The position numbers were made by a program, and so were the translations under genes. From IMG/VR virus record IMGVR_UViG_2531839668_000016: 10,902 nt of DNA, one strand, 5' to 3'. This document shows positions 1,528 to 10,902 of this stretch, piece after piece. The notes under the pieces were generated by a model. The model had not been told where the DNA came from, made no database searches, and saw only the letters and a list, made by a program, of their open reading frames with translations. Each line of letters starts with the position of its first letter. Positions within the stretch are counted from its first letter, which is position 1. Source of the stretch: a virus. Taxonomy: Duplodnaviria > Heunggongvirae > Uroviricota > Caudoviricetes.

Positions 1528-1692
1528 TTACATGTTTTCGATGATCGCTTCACCAAACTCTGAACATTTCAGCAGCTTAGCGCCTTCCATCAGACGTTCG
1601 AAGTCATAAGTTACGGTCTTGGCATTGATTGCGCCTTCCATACCTTTAACAATCAGGTCAGCCGCTTCAGTCCAACCCATATGGCGCAGCAG
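1528..1692 (-). pseudogene. icd: 3' fragment of isocitrate dehydrogenase gene (icdC-like); att core duplication of an icd-integrating prophage
   Basis: Minus-strand translation reads [54 protein letters not shown], which is the Icd C-terminus. There is no upstream coding continuation, and homology ends near 1692. Confidence 0.85.
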
Positions 1693-2427: not shown

Positions 2428-3513
2428 CTATTGCCAGCAATTGTTTTTAATTGCTTTAGCATCTACCGTCATATCTACTGTAGCAAAATGGATCTTATGT
2501 CCCTGAGTGACAACATACTCATTAAGCATATAGCCAACAGCTGGATGAAGTAGAAGACCAGCGGCATTGAGCGAAAGCGGATCCGTCTTGTTCTCCTGTG
2601 TTCTAAGGTAGGTATATAGCTGATAAATATAGCCATTACGTAGTGATTGCTCCCGATGCCAACCCTTTGTCAGAATCGAATTAAATTTGGTATCGATAAT
2701 AATACGCCGCTGGGCAGTCTTGTGTTCCAGAATAATGTCTGACTTCATTGTCGGGAAAATCTCTGCACTACCTGCACTTTGATCGCTCAACGCCCATTTC
2801 AGCTCTTTCCCTGCAGAGACCTGCCAAGTTGTTTTGGCAAGGTGTACACGATATAAGCCAGCGATACCTTTTTCAAATAGTCTTCTCATCCAGTAAAGGT
2901 TATTTGAGGGCGCAGGTAAAAGATATTGGCCTTGATCTTCGGTCGGCATCAGCAGTTCAAAAGCTAATCGTGCGGCATCGACCATCGGTTTATCTGCGGC
3001 ATCATGGCGTCCAAAACGCCACACTGAGGGTAATTCGCGGGGGGCAGGATATCCTCCATTTATCCCCTCACGGCGAAGTGATATTGCCATAAAATGGCAA
3101 TCTGCCGCCAAAGACGGTTTCACTATGATTGAGGCCAGACGTTCTAACGCACAGCGAACATAGCGATTTCGGGGGGTGTTGAGGGTTATGTCTTGAAAAT
3201 GGCAGGCAACCTGTCCCCGTTCCAGCAGTTGATGACTGGCAGTATACAGTATGTCAATGCGCCCTCTCACCCGGTTCAGGGCCGCATGACAAGTTTGGTA
3301 TCCCATATTTAAATTGCGACGTCGGCGCAGCGTAATCTCATGAAGGAGGATTGTCGCCACCAGGTCGGGGATTTCTGCTGGGTTATCTTCTACTGCGATC
3401 TGATTGCGCCCTAACTGGCGAAACAGATCTGAAGCGTACAGCATCAGCATCCAGATATTTCGCATGGGAATACGTGATGCTGTATGTTGCTCACTCCCGG
3501 TTATTGTCGTCAT
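2428..3513 (-). CDS. McrC-like nuclease subunit of a McrBC-type (type IV, modification-dependent) restriction system
   Basis: 361 aa. Its ATG overlaps the stop of the upstream McrB-like gene (ATGA at 3510-3513). Size is similar to McrC (348 aa), and the C-terminal region has a PD-(D/E)xK-like stretch (DIILEHK...IIIDTKF). Confidence 0.65.
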   Translation of the reverse strand: MTTITGSEQHTASRIPMRNIWMLMLYASDLFRQLGRNQIAVEDNPAEIPDLVATILLHEITLRRRRNLNMGYQTCHAALNRVRGRIDILYTASHQLLERGQVACHFQDITLNTPRNRYVRCALERLASIIVKPSLAADCHFMAISLRREGINGGYPAPRELPSVWRFGRHDAADKPMVDAARLAFELLMPTEDQGQYLLPAPSNNLYWMRRLFEKGIAGLYRVHLAKTTWQVSAGKELKWALSDQSAGSAEIFPTMKSDIILEHKTAQRRIIIDTKFNSILTKGWHREQSLRNGYIYQLYTYLRTQENKTDPLSLNAAGLLLHPAVGYMLNEYVVTQGHKIHFATVDMTVDAKAIKNNCWQ

Positions 3514-5492
3514 TTTGCTAATAACACTTTTCTGGCTTCATCGACTTTATTTGGAGCATCGAACCAATATTCGGCGAGCAAAGGGCAGATCTCTGTATCA
3601 ACGACTTGTTCATACCAAGCCTGGGCATCGTTGATTTTTTGGCCGATAGCTGGGGTGACATAGCTGTGACCGATACAAAACTGTGGTCCTAAGGTAACAT
3701 CTTTTGCCAGCATATCGTTTAATACCGTCAGTCGAGATTTGATGAATGCTAACATGTCAAAATCAATTGCGTAATTATAATTTACCCAGTTTCTCCACGC
3801 GTCATTAAAAGCTGGCTTTAGATCGATAAACGCGAAACGACGGCGCAGCGCTAGGTCAAGTAGTGCGAGTGAGCGGTCTGCAATATTCATCGTACCGATG
3901 ATATATAGATTCTCAGGAATGTATATTTTTTCATCAGCATTTTTAGGATAGGAAAGAGATAATGCCTCAGTCGGCGTGCGTTTATCTGCTTCCATCAACG
4001 TGAGTGTTTCACCGAAGATTTGCGCCGGATTGCCACGATTAATCTCTTCAATTATCACCACATATTTCGAGGTAGGATTATTGACTGCAGTTTTGATTGC
4101 ATTTACAAAAGGTCCATCAATTAGCGTCAATTGCCCTTCTTTACCTGGACGCCAGCCTCGAATAAAGTCTTCGTAAGAGAGGTTCGGGTGAAATTGCACC
4201 GCGCTAATACGCTCAGGTGCTTTTTCTCCCATCAAGCAGTACGCCAGACGTCGCGCTAACCAAGTTTTTCCAGTTCCGGGTGGTCCTTGTAATATCAGGT
4301 TTTTCTTGTCGATCAGGCGCTGAAGTGTGAGTTGGATCTTAGCCTCTTCCAAGAAACAGCCATCCTGCACCAGATGACTGATGTCATAAGGAACGTGGGT
4401 GAGTTTTGGCAACAGCGCACTCTCTTCGACAGTTTCCTCAGTTATCGTCTGGGATTCGTTTTTCTCAAAATTCAGGTATTCATAATTTCCGGACTCGAGG
4501 GACTTTAACTCATCATCATTGCATAGTTTCTGTAGATAAAAGTAGATTGAGCTTGTAACAGTTTTGCTCTCAGGATGCTCTACCTTGAATACGTCCAAGT
4601 AGTTTTCTTCCAACTCCGAAGCAGTGAAATAAGGGCCATTTTTTTTCAGGCATAACGCCTTAATTTTATTCAGTAAAGAGGCTTTCCACGTTCTATTTGC
4701 CACCTCATCTTTAGACTGGCTAAGATCTGTATTCCACGCTGATAAGGAAAGTTCTGGGAAAGAATGAACCGGATAGTTTGGTTGGGTAAAGACCTCGTTC
4801 AGCGCCCGCATAAGACTCAGGTAACTTTGTCCACTACAGCGACCTTTTGCCCCGTTTTTAATGATCTTAATGTTTAACACTGTCTGAATGTAATACTGCG
4901 ACTGGCTATCTAAAGTGGGGTAGAACCAAGGACGGGTCCAGTACAACCCCATGGTGAGATTCCAACCGACATTCATTACTGTAGAAGCGATGTCATATGC
5001 GGCAGTGAAGTCTGCAGAGTTAGTATTCTGGTTATCCGCAAAGATCATTGCCTGTGAGAACATTTCCCACAAGCATTCAATGTCATTAGGGTCGCGTGAC
5101 TTTTCATAACCAAAGAACCAAGATTTTTGGTTATTCAACAGAGGGATTCCGGCAAAGGAGTCAGGAATCGGTTCGTTCACGCCCAACAAATTCGCTAGCT
5201 TGGCAGCAATAATTTTGCGATTGCTGTCGGTCAAGTTACGATTGAACAAGCCCATAGTAGTAAACGGACAAATGTCTTTTAAGGGAAAGATCTCTCCCAT
5301 AATAGATTTGTCCTGCAGATGGGACATTCCTTCCACACCCGAGGCAATTAGATGAATACCTTTGACTAATTCATCTCTACGATTTCGCCAAGTCAGTAAC
5401 GCGTTGGCAAAAGCCTCATAAAAACTAGCCCAAGCAAACTTGCCATCATGTTCTGCTGTATCCACGGGAACTCCATTATACTTGTTGAGCAA
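3510..5492 (-). CDS. McrB-family AAA+ GTPase with a large uncharacterised N-terminal domain (~390 aa)
   Basis: Walker A GPPGTGKT at aa 403-410 (nt 4263-4286). VVIIEEINRGN...FGETLTLMEADKR and the IIGTMNIADRSLALLDLALRRRFAFIDL block closely parallel E. coli McrB (FIIDEINRAN..., MNTADRSLAVVDYALRRRF). The N-terminal 390 aa are unrelated to the E. coli McrB DNA-binding domain. The annotated start is TTG; an in-frame GTG 9 codons downstream has a better SD. Confidence 0.8.
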   Translation of the reverse strand: MLNKYNGVPVDTAEHDGKFAWASFYEAFANALLTWRNRRDELVKGIHLIASGVEGMSHLQDKSIMGEIFPLKDICPFTTMGLFNRNLTDSNRKIIAAKLANLLGVNEPIPDSFAGIPLLNNQKSWFFGYEKSRDPNDIECLWEMFSQAMIFADNQNTNSADFTAAYDIASTVMNVGWNLTMGLYWTRPWFYPTLDSQSQYYIQTVLNIKIIKNGAKGRCSGQSYLSLMRALNEVFTQPNYPVHSFPELSLSAWNTDLSQSKDEVANRTWKASLLNKIKALCLKKNGPYFTASELEENYLDVFKVEHPESKTVTSSIYFYLQKLCNDDELKSLESGNYEYLNFEKNESQTITEETVEESALLPKLTHVPYDISHLVQDGCFLEEAKIQLTLQRLIDKKNLILQGPPGTGKTWLARRLAYCLMGEKAPERISAVQFHPNLSYEDFIRGWRPGKEGQLTLIDGPFVNAIKTAVNNPTSKYVVIIEEINRGNPAQIFGETLTLMEADKRTPTEALSLSYPKNADEKIYIPENLYIIGTMNIADRSLALLDLALRRRFAFIDLKPAFNDAWRNWVNYNYAIDFDMLAFIKSRLTVLNDMLAKDVTLGPQFCIGHSYVTPAIGQKINDAQAWYEQVVDTEICPLLAEYWFDAPNKVDEARKVLLAK

Positions 5493-5825
5493 TGATAATT
5501 TATCTGTGTGAGTTTTAACATATTACTATCAGTTATAGAAAAATTTAACTATCCGATACAGAGAGCGGAATGCTGAATTTGACCTGACTTGCTTCCAACC
5601 AATTAAAATCAACTTATTTATCAATTGGTTATTTTGGCACATGGCGGTCATCAAGGCAATATCGCGTTGTCATAAGGTGTCGAGGCTCGGAGGTTCAAAT
5701 CCTCTCATACAAAAAATAAATAAAATTAATGACGGTTGGAAATTATTCAATACACTCTCGAAAGTACATCAGCCAACCGCAGCACGTTATTGCATATAAC
5801 GTTTCTGCGGCATATCACAAAACTA

Positions 5826-6409
5826 TTATTCCATAACAGGGATTGCAGGCCACTCAATATCAGGTGCAGTTGATGTATCAACACGATTCAGCAACACCCG
5901 ATACTTCTTCCAGGCTTCAAGCAACGAGGTTTCTTCCTCCGTTGCGATTTCCAGATCTGCAGCATCCTGAAGCGGGGCAATATGCTCACTGGCTACCTGC
6001 ATCAGGCTGTTTTTGTTTCTTCCGCCTCCCGGATCCGGAACAGTTTTTCTGCTTCCGTATCCTTCACCCAGGCTGTGCCGTTCCACTTCTGAAACTCCCC
6101 TTCCGGGGATAACCAGGTGATATTTTCCGGTAGAGGTCCGAGTTCAGAAATAAATAACGAGTCGCCGGAAGCCACGTCATAGACGGTTTTTCCCCGATGA
6201 TCTTCAACGAGATGCCACGATGCCTCATCACTGTTGAAAACAGCCACGAAGCCTACCGGAATATCTGGCGGTGCAATATAGGTACTGTTTGCTGGCAGAC
6301 CTGTATGAGGCGGAATATATGCGTCACCTTCACCAATAAATTCATTAGTTCCGGCCAGCAGATTATAAATTTTTATGGTCCGTGGTTGTTCACTCATTCT
6401 GAATGCCAT
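5826..6409 (-). pseudogene. tfa: Tail fibre assembly protein (Tfa, lambda/e14 TfaE-like), frameshifted
   Basis: Two overlapping ORFs in different frames (6002-6409 and 5826-6086) together give [15 protein letters not shown]...REAEETK / [22 protein letters not shown]...[10 protein letters not shown], i.e. a full Tfa. The frame break is in an A-run at 6008-6017. Confidence 0.8.
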
Positions 6410-6537
6410 TATGCAAGCCTCACAATGTAGTTAAATGCGATGTTTTTGACGGTGTTTTCCGCGTTACCAGCAGCGTTAACGGTGATGGTGTGTCCATGTG
6501 AGCCAATCGCAACGGAGTGCGTATGAGCACCAATACC
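6409..6537 (-). pseudogene. stf: C-terminal fragment (~42 aa) of side tail fibre protein Stf
   Basis: Minus-strand frame gives [42 protein letters not shown], and its TAA overlaps the tfa ATG (TAATG). Nothing upstream is Stf-like. Confidence 0.7.
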
Positions 6538-6632
6538 TGTGGCTTTTCGTCGTACTGTTCCGGCATGTTGTTGGCGATCCGACGCATCTGCTCACGGTCA
6601 AAGTTAACCATCTGTGCGGCGATGTTTTTCAT
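6535..6632 (-). pseudogene. P: N-terminal fragment (~33 aa) of lambda replication protein P
   Basis: [33 protein letters not shown] matches the lambda P N-terminus, after which the frame runs into out-of-frame stf sequence. Its start overlaps the O-fragment stop (ATGA). Confidence 0.75.
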
Positions 6633-6865
6633 AGATCCACCCCGTAAATCCAGTCAGTGTTTGTCAGGTCGAGTTTTGGTTTGCCGACTGTCACGCCAGC
6701 CTGTTGCTTGTTCCGGTTGATTTCGAGCTGGGTCCACTTGTCGCGGAGTTTGGCCGGACTCAGCACGTTACCGGACCAGAAGTTGTCCTGGCAGGCCCAG
6801 CGGAACAGTACACACATGTCGCGGTGGTTACGTCCATCACGTTCACGCATCAGACGGATATCGTT
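6629..6865 (-). pseudogene. O: C-terminal fragment of lambda replication initiator O
   Basis: ...[56 protein letters not shown] matches the lambda O C-terminus. Upstream, the reading frame runs into antisense exo sequence. Confidence 0.75.
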
Positions 6866-7519
6866 ACCGGGATCGACGTGAGAGCTGTCGAACAGGGGGA
6901 TGATGCGTGGCACAAATTACGGCTCGGCGTCATCACCGCTTCAGAAGTTCACAACGTGATAGCAAAGCCCCGCTCAGGAAAGAAGTGGCCTGACATGAAA
7001 ATGTCCTACTTCCACACCCTGCTTGCCGAGGTTTGCACCGGTGTGGCTCCGGAAGTTAACGCTAAAGCACTGGCCTGGGGAAAACAGTACGAGAACGACG
7101 CCAGAACCCTGTTTGAGTTCACTTCCAGCGTAAATGTTATTGAATCCCCGATCATCTATCGCGACGAAAGTATGCGCACCGCCTGCTCTCCCGATGGTTT
7201 ATGCAGTGACGGCAATGGCCTTGAACTGAAATGCCCGTTTACCTCCCGGGATTTCATGAAGTTCCGGCTCGGTGGTTTCGAGGCCATAAAGTCGGCTTAC
7301 ATGGCCCAGGTGCAGTACAGCATGTGGGTGACGCGAAAAGATGCCTGGTACTTTGCCAACTATGACCCGCGTATGAAGCGTGAAGGCCTGCATTATGTCG
7401 TGGTTGAGCGGGATGAAAAGTACATGGCGAATTTTGACGAGATGGTGCCGGAGTTCATCGAAAAAATGGACGAGGCACTGGCTGAAATTGGTTTTGTATT
7501 TGGGGAGCAATGGCGATGA
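6866..7519 (+). pseudogene. exo: Lambda exonuclease (Red-alpha, Exo), 5'-truncated (lacks ~first 9 codons)
   Basis: [56 protein letters not shown]...[11 protein letters not shown] is near-identical to lambda Exo from residue ~11 to the end. The upstream 55 codons of the 6704 ORF are antisense to the O fragment and are not Exo. Confidence 0.85.
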
Positions 7520-7674
7520 CGCATCCTCACGATAATATCCGGGTAGGCGCGATCACTTTCGTCTACTCCATTACAAAGCGAGGCTGGGTATTTCCCGGCC
7601 TTTCTGTTATCAGAAATCCACTGAAAGCACAGCGGCTGGCTGAGAAGATAAATAACAAACAGGAGGATATATGA
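7516..7674 (+). CDS. Small ORF (52 aa, [52 protein letters not shown]), coupled on both sides
   Basis: Its ATG overlaps the exo stop (ATGA at 7516-7519), and its TGA overlaps the ATG of the DGQHR gene (ATGA at 7671-7674). Positionally it corresponds to the small orfs following exo in lambda. Confidence 0.5.
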
Positions 7675-8735
7675 GTCAGGTTGGTAATCATTCATTCGAA
7701 TTTCCGGCATCGCAAGGTGTACAGGGTGGTACTGTTACACTCTTCCTTACCATACCAGGAAGATCGCTGGCTCGTTTCCTCGCTTCAGATAATTACGGCC
7801 ATACACTGGAACGCTCTCAGCGAGAAATTAATCCAAATCGAGTACGAAAATTTTTAAATTATCTCACTAACGCAGACTCAAGAAATGAGCCTTTTATCAT
7901 TCCCCCTCTCGTAGGTAACTGTGATTCGAATATAGAATTTGTACCGTTTGGCAACACAAATGTTGGTATAGCCAGAATTCCCCTCGACGCCGAAATAAAA
8001 CTTTTTGATGGTCAACATCGTGCAGCTGGCATTGAGATATTTTGCCGAAGTTCCCCATCAACGCTCATGGTTCCCATGATGCTTACAATGAATCTGCCGC
8101 TAAAAACCCGGCAGCAGTTCTTTTCGGACATAAATAACAACGTTTCTAAGCCATCAGCGACCATCAATATGGCGTATAACGGCCGGGATGATATTGCTCA
8201 GGGAATGATATCCTTCCTGACCCAACATACTGTATTTGCCGATATAACCGATTTTGAACACAACGTAGTGCCATTAAAAAGTAATATGTGGGTGAGTTTC
8301 AAGGCACTCACTGATGCAACGTCAAAGTTCGCTAGGAACGGCAATCAACAACTTGAAATGGGATATATAGAATCTGTCTGGGAGGCATGGATTACACTAA
8401 CTCAGATTGACTCAATCCGACATGGTGTACACCACGCTACGTACAAGCGCGATTATATTCAGTTCCATGGAGTAATGATTAACGCTTTCGGTTTTGCGGT
8501 TCAACAGATGATGGTTAATCATTCCATCGCAGAAATAACTTCTATGATCGAAAAACTATGTGCAACTACCAGCTCTGCAGAAAGAGAGGATTTTTTTCTG
8601 ATGGATAACTGGGCGGGGATCTGCACGAAAGCCAGCCAGGAAAAACTATCTGTTATTGCCAATGTGGCAGCGCAGAAAGCAGCAGCAAACAGACTGATAC
8701 AAGCTTTTACCAAAGGAAGTCTGGAAACAACTTAA
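7671..8735 (+). CDS. DGQHR-domain protein (DndB-like, ParB/Srx-like fold)
   Basis: 354 aa with an exact DGQHR motif (KLFDGQHRAAGIE, aa 113-117, nt 8007-8021). SD CAGGAGGA lies upstream, and the gene is translationally coupled to the preceding small ORF. Confidence 0.75.
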   Translation: MSQVGNHSFEFPASQGVQGGTVTLFLTIPGRSLARFLASDNYGHTLERSQREINPNRVRKFLNYLTNADSRNEPFIIPPLVGNCDSNIEFVPFGNTNVGIARIPLDAEIKLFDGQHRAAGIEIFCRSSPSTLMVPMMLTMNLPLKTRQQFFSDINNNVSKPSATINMAYNGRDDIAQGMISFLTQHTVFADITDFEHNVVPLKSNMWVSFKALTDATSKFARNGNQQLEMGYIESVWEAWITLTQIDSIRHGVHHATYKRDYIQFHGVMINAFGFAVQQMMVNHSIAEITSMIEKLCATTSSAEREDFFLMDNWAGICTKASQEKLSVIANVAAQKAAANRLIQAFTKGSLETT

Positions 8736-9533: not shown

Positions 9534-9770
9534 ATGTCTCGACTAATCACTTTACAGGACTGGGCTAAAGAAGAATTTGGGGACTTAGCACCAAGTGAGC
9601 GAGTTCTGAAAAAATACGCGCAAGGGAAAATGATGGCCCCACCCGCTATAAAAGTTGGTCGCTACTGGATGATTGACCGAAATTCCCGTTTTGTAGGAAC
9701 GCTTGCAGAACCGCAACTCCCAATAAACGCAAACCCAAAACTCCAACGGATAATCGCTGATGGCTGCTAG
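9534..9770 (+). CDS. xis: Excisionase (Xis-like recombination directionality factor)
   Basis: 78 aa with strong SD AAGAGGAGGA. It sits immediately upstream of int and overlaps it by 11 nt. The N-terminal LITLQDWA...PPAIKVGRYW resembles lambda Xis (YLTLQEW...PPPVKDGREY). Confidence 0.65.
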   Translation: MSRLITLQDWAKEEFGDLAPSERVLKKYAQGKMMAPPAIKVGRYWMIDRNSRFVGTLAEPQLPINANPKLQRIIADGC

Positions 9771-10902
9771 ACCCCGATCTCACAAAATCTCTATACCCAA
9801 TTTATATTGCAAATTAGATAAGCGAACCGGAAAGGTATATTGGCAATACAAACATCCACTATCCGGTCGTTTTCATAGCTTAGGAACTGATGAGAATGAA
9901 GCAAAACAAGTTGCTACTGAAGCAAATACCATTATTGCTGAACAACGTACCAGACAAATATTAAGCGTCAATGAGCGTCTGGAAAGAATGAAAGGCAGGC
10001 GCTCAGACATTACGGTGACAGAATGGCTTGATAAATATATTTCTATCCAGGAGGACAGGCTGCAACATAATGAACTAAGACCCAACTCCTATCGGCAAAA
10101 AGGCAAACCCATTCGTCTTTTCCGTGAGCATTGTGGAATGCAACACCTCAAGGATATTACCGCACTTGATATTGCCGAAATAATTGATGCTGTAAAGGCT
10201 GAAGGTCATAACAGGATGGCGCAAGTCGTGAGAATGGTGTTGATCGACGTCTTCAAAGAAGCACAACACGCAGGACATGTTCCGCCAGGATTTAACCCTG
10301 CGCAGGCAACAAAACAACCGCGAAATCGAGTAAACCGCCAAAGATTGTCACTGCTCGAATGGCAGGCAATATTTGAAAGCGTAAGCAGACGGCAGCCCTA
10401 TTTAAAATGCGGCATGCTACTTGCTCTTGTTACTGGACAACGTTTAGGCGATATCTGCAATTTGAAATTCTCTGATATATGGGACGACATGTTGCACATT
10501 ACTCAGGAAAAAACCGGTTCAAAACTTGCTATTCCGCTTAACCTGAAATGCGATGCTCTGAATATTACCCTTCGTGAAGTTATATCTCAGTGCAGGGATG
10601 CTGTTGTTAGTAAATATCTGGTCCATTACCGTCACACTACCTCTCAAGCAAACAGAGGAGACCAGGTTTCTGCAAATACTCTGACAACGGCTTTTAAAAA
10701 GGCCCGGGAAAAATGTGGCATAAAATGGGAGCAAGGAACTGCGCCCACATTTCATGAGCAGCGATCTCTCTCAGAACGGTTATATCGGGAACAGGGTCTG
10801 GATACGCAAAAGTTGTTAGGCCATAAATCCAGAAAAATGACCGACCGATACAATGATGATCGTGGTAAAGACTGGATTATCGTAGATATCAAAACAGCAT
10901 AG
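9760..10902 (+). CDS. int: Lambda-family tyrosine integrase
   Basis: 380 aa. N-terminus MAARPRSHKISIPNLY resembles lambda Int MGRRRSHERRDLPPNLY. C-terminal catalytic region has GQRLGD, HEQRSLSERLY, LGHKS and RYNDDRGKDW, paralleling lambda HELRSLSARLY...LGHKS...YRDDRGREW. Confidence 0.9.
   Translation: MAARPRSHKISIPNLYCKLDKRTGKVYWQYKHPLSGRFHSLGTDENEAKQVATEANTIIAEQRTRQILSVNERLERMKGRRSDITVTEWLDKYISIQEDRLQHNELRPNSYRQKGKPIRLFREHCGMQHLKDITALDIAEIIDAVKAEGHNRMAQVVRMVLIDVFKEAQHAGHVPPGFNPAQATKQPRNRVNRQRLSLLEWQAIFESVSRRQPYLKCGMLLALVTGQRLGDICNLKFSDIWDDMLHITQEKTGSKLAIPLNLKCDALNITLREVISQCRDAVVSKYLVHYRHTTSQANRGDQVSANTLTTAFKKAREKCGIKWEQGTAPTFHEQRSLSERLYREQGLDTQKLLGHKSRKMTDRYNDDRGKDWIIVDIKTA

Follow-up and report, generated by a model that had tools for sequence, protein, structure and literature searches.

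Introduction

Cryptic lambdoid prophages of Escherichia coli include e14, inserted in icd of strain K-12, and DLP12, located at argU. The element described here belongs with them, as a product of ordinary prophage decay and as a remnant that is already annotated. It lies in a stretch of 10,902 nucleotides (nt) recorded as a virus of the Caudoviricetes (IMG/VR record IMGVR_UViG_2531839668_000016), referred to below as the window, and its centre, at positions 6409–6870, joins fragments of the side tail fibre gene stf, the replication genes P and O and the exonuclease gene exo. An earlier reading of the letters (the original prediction) had attributed this arrangement to large deletions within a prophage.

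The icd element shares with e14 the attachment site, where the prophage supplies a replacement 3' end of icd and leaves an icd' pseudogene, as well as the order of modules (int-xis, early genes, stf/tfa, restriction cargo, icd'), the presence of internal fusions of truncated replication and/or morphogenesis genes (oweE'/aaaE' in e14) and a methyl-dependent restriction gene beside attR. The two differ in integrase (int has only ~64% DNA identity to the e14-type intE of strain ML35), in cargo (McrA in e14, McrBC in the window), in the pin invertase, which the window type lacks, and in their deletions. DLP12 resembles the window in having exo back-to-back with a fragment of P where the immunity/replication region was lost (exoD'|peaD') and a terminase gene fused to tfa after loss of structural genes (aaaD'|tfaD); it differs in locus, integrase and break positions and has kept its nin, Q and lysis genes.

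Among complete elements, the closest are phage 21, phage 4A7 (Bievrevirus) and the prophage of strain AVS0747, which are 96–99% identical to the window along the arm from int-xis to exo, and likewise at the 3' end of O and the 5' end of P (the int arm is 96–98% identical to phages 21, 4A7 and 4C10). They differ from the window in being complete genomes of 43–49 kb. Phage 4A7 and AVS0747 also have the P-ren-emrE-ybcK-ybcN nin region found in the intermediates described below, and 4A7 carries sitABCD in place of McrBC. The integration module of the icd element is that of phage 21 and its overall gene plan that of phage 4A7 and DLP12.

With a probability of about 0.93, region 6409–6870 represents what is left, after collapse, of the middle of a cryptic lambdoid prophage in icd, and its two joints are the scars of nested deletions formed without long homology or insertion sequences (IS). 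The prophage shrank from ~49 kb to ~9.5 kb.

Gene fragments at the centre of the remnant

Fragments were placed by BLASTN against lambda followed by conversion to lambda gene coordinates. Three matches account for the region: window 5775–6535 corresponds to lambda 22608–21847 (tfa and the 3' end of stf/orf-314; 93.8% identity), window 6534–6866 to lambda 39680–39348 (3' end of O and 5' end of P; 96.1%) and window 6865–7673 to lambda 32002–31194 (exo from nucleotide 27, then orf60a; 96.9%). Their E-values range from 1e-155 to 0, which excludes chance.

Three fragments are read on the minus strand. The stf' fragment (6409–6537) holds the last 42 codons and the stop of the side tail fibre gene (lambda 21847–21973) and is continuous with the full-length stf of strain E2 (locus L006, to position 11572). 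The P' fragment (6534–6632) comprises codons 1–33 of the gene for replication protein P (lambda 39582–39680) and is found in E2 from L006 position 19819 at 99.98% identity. The O' fragment (6629–6866) comprises codons 222–299 and the stop of the gene for the replication initiator O (lambda 39348–39585) and aligns to AVS0747 43609–43941 at 97.6%. The O stop and the P start overlap in an ATGA at 6629–6632 (minus strand), which can be read from the sequence itself and is native, the same O-P arrangement occurring in lambda, phage 21 and phage 4A7. The exo' fragment (6865–7519), which lies on the plus strand, has codons 10–226, beginning at nucleotide 27, the last base of codon 9 (lambda 32002–31348), and its product matches the Pfam family YqaJ (7e-29); exo-bet-gam is intact in strains NCTC9087, TD225-C4 and AVS0747. 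Pfam recognises none of the short O', P' and stf' peptides (33–79 amino acids); the identification of these fragments rests on DNA identity to annotated phage genes. The order int, xis, an orf60a-like gene, exo', 'O, P', 'stf, tfa is colinear with the lambda prophage map.

The lambda alignments agree with the original prediction that the last ~78 codons of O are followed by the first ~33 of P with native ATGA coupling, that the last 42 codons of stf are joined to P', and that exo starts on the plus strand at codon ~10, directly abutting antisense O. They correct its count of three breakpoints within ~460 bp, as only two novel joints exist (6534–6537 and 6865–6866) and the O'/P' boundary is native.

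The two joints at base resolution

At joint A (stf'|P', 6534–6537) the tetranucleotide TACC is common to both parents, as seen in a three-row alignment in which both parents come from strain E2; the window matches L006 5030–11572 and L006 19819–24187 at ≥99.9% identity. This deletion amounts to 8,250 bp on the E2 background and to 33,832 bp in comparison with AVS0747. At joint B (O'|exo', 6865–6866) the parents have TA in common, according to three-row alignments with lambda, 4A7 and TD225-C4 on the O side and with NCTC9087 on the exo side, and 5,972 bp are absent relative to AVS0747. The exo side is unbroken in NCTC9087, TD225-C4, 74-2 and AVS0747, and the O side in lambda, 4A7, TD225-C4, 74-2 and AVS0747. 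In close relatives both flanks of each joint are therefore contiguous with the deleted DNA (E2 at 99.9% for joint A; AVS0747, 74-2 and NCTC9087 for joint B). The microhomology that the original prediction had suggested looking for is present at both joints, and neither contains inserted DNA.

No IS sequence occurs at joint A or B in the window, in contrast to strain WCHEC020031, where an IS1 copy is retained at an O'|pin' joint; IS-mediated adjacent deletion of the kind that leaves an IS copy behind was rejected on this ground. Nor is there an att-like core at either joint: the attachment core TGGCGCAGCA is unrelated to both and neither joint involves att. A search for promoter-like sites around the joints found none above shuffle expectation. 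With few shared bases and no insertion, the joints fit microhomology-mediated illegitimate deletion, save that the sequence of the microhomology is constrained.

Relatives, frequencies and order of the deletions

Strain AVS0747 carries at icd an apparently complete prophage of ~49.3 kb, 99.3% identical to the window along the int arm and 98.9% along the tfa-McrBC arm, with all intervening modules present. Compared with it, the window lacks 33,832 bp between stf and P and 5,972 bp between O and exo. The original prediction, which had placed some 25 kb of late genes between these pieces on the lambda map, was right about the loss of late genes and too low on its size (33.8 kb by comparison with AVS0747).

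A survey of 5,426 complete E. coli genomes found joint B in 23 and joint A in 7, all 7 of the latter having both, so that 16 genomes have joint B without joint A. In 15 joint-B genomes (E2, NCTC9100, Z1323CEC0014 and others) P, ren, emrE and ybcK are intact and are followed by a ybcN'|'J joint, full-length stf, tfa and McrBC. The ybcN'|'J joint, present in 17 genomes, removed 23,040 bp relative to AVS0747 and has TACC common to both sides. All inspected loci with joint A or B sit at icd.

At least three nested deletions, here D1, D2 and D3, took place, and D3 came last, because the window type derives from the E2 type by D3, which erased the D2 joint. D1 took out ~6.0 kb, beginning at exo nucleotide 26 and running across bet, gam, kil and the immunity region to O codons 1–221. 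D2 cost the prophage ~23 kb between ybcN and J, with Q and the genes for lysis, head and tail. D3 eliminated another 8,250 bp, which reached from P codon 34 as far as the retained final 42 codons of stf and included the D2 joint. The O'P' piece of 332 bp is what was left over between D1 and D3. The intact prophage of AVS0747, the 15 intermediates and other deletions in sister strains directly bear out the earlier claim that two or more large deletions collapsed the prophage, and the comparison of sister strains at icd that had been suggested did yield less degraded copies (AVS0747, the E2 type and others).

Other strains represent independent decay paths of the same icd element. In NCTC9087 tfa' is joined to gam-bet-exo; TD225-C4 and E94 have immunity region, O and P intact; WCHEC020031 combines a bet'|cro' joint with an IS1-mediated loss; in RM10410 O' is joined to a DUF1317 gene; and further decay variants were found in HEC0011, 74-2, GDSC2227PM, Z217-4, 730V1, 65COLEC and VCSW7. 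In ML35 (NZ_CP025747; locus L012 21,227–31,406) an e14-type remnant (intE, xisE, repressor, baseplate genes, ymfQ') is fused to P of the icd prophage; the two elements were therefore once in tandem at icd and a deletion across the inner att site followed. In the same strain mcrB is split by an IS3-family element.

Public genomes preserve the whole decay series, with the intact prophage at 49 kb, the intermediates at 17.8 kb and the remnant at 9.5 kb. For this reason there is no need to guess how large each loss was or in which order the losses came, since both can be read off, and the genes that are retained (int/xis, the DndB-family gene, McrBC) are likewise apparent.

What remains of the prophage

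In comparison with AVS0747, the origin iterons and the N-terminal, DNA-binding half of O are gone from the remnant, and P is short of 200 of its 233 codons; bet, gam and kil are absent too, along with the repressor, its operators, Q, the lysis genes and all structural genes save tfa. Functions needed for lytic growth are thus missing (33 of 233 P codons left; no origin, repressor, Q, lysis, head or tail genes), and judging from gene content the remnant is probably unable to replicate, repress, lyse or build particles.

The exo' fragment lacks a start codon, a ribosome-binding site and the upstream bet, its YqaJ domain being nearly complete. The Prokaryotic Genome Annotation Pipeline (PGAP) calls it as a protein of 219 amino acids from an ATC start at window 6860. 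An open reading frame (ORF) at 6704–7519 (plus strand) has its TTG start inside antisense O' and fuses 55 unrelated residues to exo residues 10–226. By-product fusion ORFs include P residues 1–33 followed by 37 out-of-frame residues and a GTG-started O'. The scars would have no function of their own, and O', P' and stf' appear to be dead fragments.

Kept in almost every decay state are int/xis, a DUF4222 gene, a TraR/DksA-like gene, the DndB-family (DGQHR) gene and McrBC. The claim that int/xis, the accessory genes and McrBC were spared in the window holds. Selection for cargo, or against lethal genes, has been described for "grounded" prophages (PMC6379469), and the gene set retained here would fit either. 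The DndB-family gene is present in most decay states, and in some relatives other small genes take its place.

A TA/TACC regularity and reused end points

Every IS-free deletion joint that could be placed with both parents was collected from the icd family and from the DLP12 copies of K-12 and EC50 (n = 21). Seventeen of these joints cross at TA, with the microhomologies TA (9 joints), TAG, TAT, TAC, TACC (3 joints), ATA and CTACC; the other four comprise one with TA inside a 7-nt repeat and three without TA (GGTT, GCTT, C/CT). The two K-12 DLP12 joints, exoD'|peaD' and aaaD'|tfaD (locus L017 2877–2878 and 18160–18162), show TA and TAT microhomologies, respectively, against lambda or 4A7 parents. 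Joints simulated from the same sequences, with microhomologies of at least 2 nt, served as the null: a microhomology starting with TA was found in 11 of the 15 joints then available, against 4.5% expected (P ~2e-12), and in 7 of 10 under the most conservative collapsing.

The longer form TACC occurs at 14 of 29 parental sites, compared with 7.8% of background TA sites (P ~8e-9), and at 12 of 26 once near-duplicate variants are removed; it is read on the window plus strand in 12 sites and on the opposite strand in 3. Outside TA and the next two bases, no position reached ~0.6 bit in the first 14 sites; a C at -4 (9 of 14 sites) was considered as part of a motif and was lost when further sites were added. 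Dyad symmetry is absent from the 29 parental sites (on average 2.9 of 12 positions, versus 3.1 for 2,290 background TA sites).

Eight end points are each used twice, with differing partners: stf_a (window type and HEC0011), stf_b (GDSC2227PM and Z217-4), P_b (window type and ML35), P_a (74-2 and EC50), O_a (window type and RM10410), exo_a (window type and GDSC2227PM), the DUF1317 site (RM10410 and EC50) and ybcN (E2 and 74-2). Two of these, P_a and the DUF1317 site, are reused by the EC50 copy of DLP12. Four of the reused sites cannot be sequential events in one lineage, as P_b and ybcN keep opposite sides in their two carriers, and P_a and the DUF1317 site were used again in a different prophage at a different locus (DLP12, argU).

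Within this small sample of related events the pattern of TA/TACC and hot spots is statistically strong. It is no universal rule, because nin5, a laboratory deletion of lambda, uses a plain 10-bp repeat. Literature searches on a TA rule in E. coli deletions and on microhomology in cryptic prophage decay returned nothing relevant. Of the present results, this regularity alone might surprise a specialist.

Explanations of the joints and their end points

RecA-independent microhomology deletion (alternative end joining and/or slippage) is the described process nearest to these joints, with which they share 2–4 common nt, the absence of IS and of filler, and the loss of the intervening DNA; they depart from it in that TA/TACC dominates and end points recur. 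To our knowledge no dinucleotide preference has been reported for this kind of deletion in E. coli, and a literature search for one found none. The favoured mechanism, at roughly even odds, is breakage and joining or template switching with a preference for TA, above all where CC follows, as opposed to random slippage. The broader proposition, that large deletions in lambdoid prophages are non-random and result from an undescribed, strand-biased process at TA (preferably TA|CC) that reuses a few sites (exo, O, P, ybcN, stf, DUF1317), is tentative and less likely than not. If it were true, a specific molecular process would channel prophage domestication, which would not then result from random deletion with selection afterwards; the same end points would be reached independently by separate lineages and by prophages as different as the icd element and DLP12; and the TA-preferring process could be identified by genetics.

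The strongest competitor, itself on the unlikely side, is random microhomology joining or replication slippage, with TA/TACC and the reuse of end points as accidents of sampling or shared ancestry. Short microhomologies of 2–4 nt are what RecA-independent deletions show, nin5 has its plain repeat, and some of the reuse could be secondary deletion in one lineage (D1 and then RM10410; the HEC0011 type and then the window type). What this explanation does not accommodate is the excess of TA-starting microhomologies, which persists after conservative collapsing, the enrichment of TACC and the four reused sites that cannot be sequential.

Rather less probable is a sequence-preferring enzyme, either a serine recombinase with TA crossover (YbcK) or a nuclease acting at TA|CC (RusA). 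An identical crossover of 2 nt is a hallmark of serine recombinases; RusA, a prophage Holliday-junction resolvase, cuts 5' of CC, with which TA|CC is compatible; this prophage type and DLP12 each have the genes for both; and hot sites recur across strains and in two prophages. Nevertheless, parental sites have no more dyad symmetry than background, TA joints also occur in elements without ybcK (the TD225-C4 and WCHEC020031 lineages), and the four-way junctions on which RusA acts should not arise between non-homologous partners.

Somewhat further down stands the possibility that the deletions were anchored at IS copies since lost, each IS leaving with a variable length of flanking DNA. It would account for one fixed end point with varying partners, and excision that depends on the IS-excision enhancer (IEE) is reported to leave deletions of a few nt to more than 40 kb beside IS (PMC9943667). 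IS629-, IS2-, IS1-, IS3- and IS10-like elements are present in sister copies, one IS1-mediated deletion is retained, and several carrier strains are Shiga toxin-producing (STEC) or atypical enteropathogenic E. coli (aEPEC). Against this, the sister loci that were examined have no IS at the eight reused end points, and the target duplications seen (TAGTG, CTGAA, CTCGTCGC and a 9–10-mer) differ from TA/TACC. The DLP12 joints of K-12, moreover, cross at TA, and K-12 is not known to have IEE.

A single complex rearrangement, in which everything from exo to stf was lost and the 332-bp O'P' piece was captured as filler DNA, would explain why both joints lie within 332 bp and cross at TA; it is very improbable, since the 16 genomes with joint B only, 15 of them with intact P and full stf, refute it and the colinear, native orientation of O'P' is what two separate deletions would leave. 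A natural mosaic contiguous in some functional lambdoid phage, the alternative that the original prediction had named as its refutation, draws on the high mosaicism of lambdoid phages (the tfa/McrBC cargo boundary at ~5775–5811 is such a module boundary) and is excluded for practical purposes because no phage record spans either joint (0 of 232 matching records cover ≥80% of window 6300–7100), while all four genes are cut inside coding sequence, intact and intermediate versions of the element occur at the same site, and the joints are found in only 23 and 7 of the 5,426 genomes.

Several further candidates were rejected. Integrase-promoted deletion fails because the att core shares nothing with the joints and no end point lies at att, and a site for a serine or tyrosine site-specific recombinase because dyad-symmetric arms are absent around the crossover. 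IS5 targets (YTAR) fit only 2 of ~26 sites, and IS1 ends, the TTAC of IS608, the integron GTTRRRY, Din-invertase sites and shufflon sfx sites, compared by their consensus sequences, show a partial and unconvincing resemblance. Rpn nucleases were ruled out on their reported absence of sequence specificity (PMC5350276), and gyrase because its quinolone-trapped cleavage prefers G after the cut and the available part of the text reports no TA preference (PMC6379681).

Some points weigh against the interpretation of region 6409–6870 as nested-deletion scars with a TA preference. As to the order of D1 and D2, ML35 and RM10410 carry D2 without the D1 joint, but the D1 region is deleted or altered in both. 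On its O side, joint B lacks an exact parent; AVS0747 comes closest, and since it is only 97.6% identical the 2-nt microhomology could be one base off. As for the preference for TA, the enzymes considered and the IS-anchored model each agree with part of the pattern and conflict with another part. Finally, the silence of the fragments is deduced from lost signals only, and ORF 6704–7519 is open, with an exonuclease of 219 amino acids called by PGAP.

Chromosomal setting and neighbouring genes

The window begins with E. coli chromosome, namely ycgX (1–405), ymgL, ymgK, iraM and icd', after which the short prophage remnant follows (ORFs, PGAP). The icd' fragment (1528–1680, minus strand), recognised by its translation, a PGAP partial icd and comparison of attL, attR and attP, is the 3' fragment of icd at the right prophage end, on the attR side; the same comparison gives TGGCGCAGCA as the common att core, which ends near 1691. 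At the other end xis (9534–9770, plus strand) and int (9760–10902, plus strand) are intact ORFs with PGAP annotation, and the functional icd lies just outside the window, beyond int. The element thus sits at a phage att site, with duplicated att/target flanks and intact int and xis.

The closest complete record is that of E. coli STECUZB006 (NZ_CP171883), from which the window differs only by four 1-nt losses in homopolymers of T or G (two sites at ~1016, then 2443 and 6009), one of which alters the C-terminus of McrC; these are probably long-read sequencing errors of the source assembly. In NZ_CP171883, PGAP already has partial genes for a tail fibre, P and O at matching positions, along with a "lambda exonuclease family protein".

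Adjoining tfa is the restriction cargo, with mcrC (2428–3513, minus strand; Pfam McrBC, 4.5e-21, and PGAP name) and a gene for an McrB-like AAA+ protein (3510–5492, minus strand; Pfam AAA_5, 8e-27, and PGAP name). The McrB homologue has 660 amino acids, the N-terminal ~380 of which have no Pfam match. The McrBC cargo (2428–5492) was found in none of 50,697 phage-collection records, yet the intact-looking prophage of AVS0747 does hold McrBC. On the far side of the joints lies the DGQHR/DndB-family accessory gene (7671–8735, plus strand; Pfam DndB, 3.8e-46, and PGAP), which stands alone in the early-left operon, without dnd or dpd partners.

Direct repeats of 43–49 nt (616–664 and 1477–1519; ~84% identity), made of sequence just downstream of icd, bracket a segment with ymgK and iraM (644–1474) that is missing from strain AVS0747; the segment looks like the remains of an earlier element that had integrated at this attachment site.

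The tail fibre assembly gene tfa (5826–6409, minus strand) is 93.8% identical to lambda tfa and is an intact gene of 585 nt in NZ_CP171883; in the window it is frameshifted at 6009 by a T6-to-T5 change and split into ORFs 6002–6409 and 5826–6086. In the sister elements of TD225-C4, WCHEC020031 and E94 a truncated pin-like invertase gene replaces tfa at the cargo boundary. Just 3' of tfa there is a hairpin, of which lambda has two copies (22572–22608 and 24161–24197) flanking ea47 and the window a single hybrid copy (5775–5811), where tfa meets the McrBC cargo.

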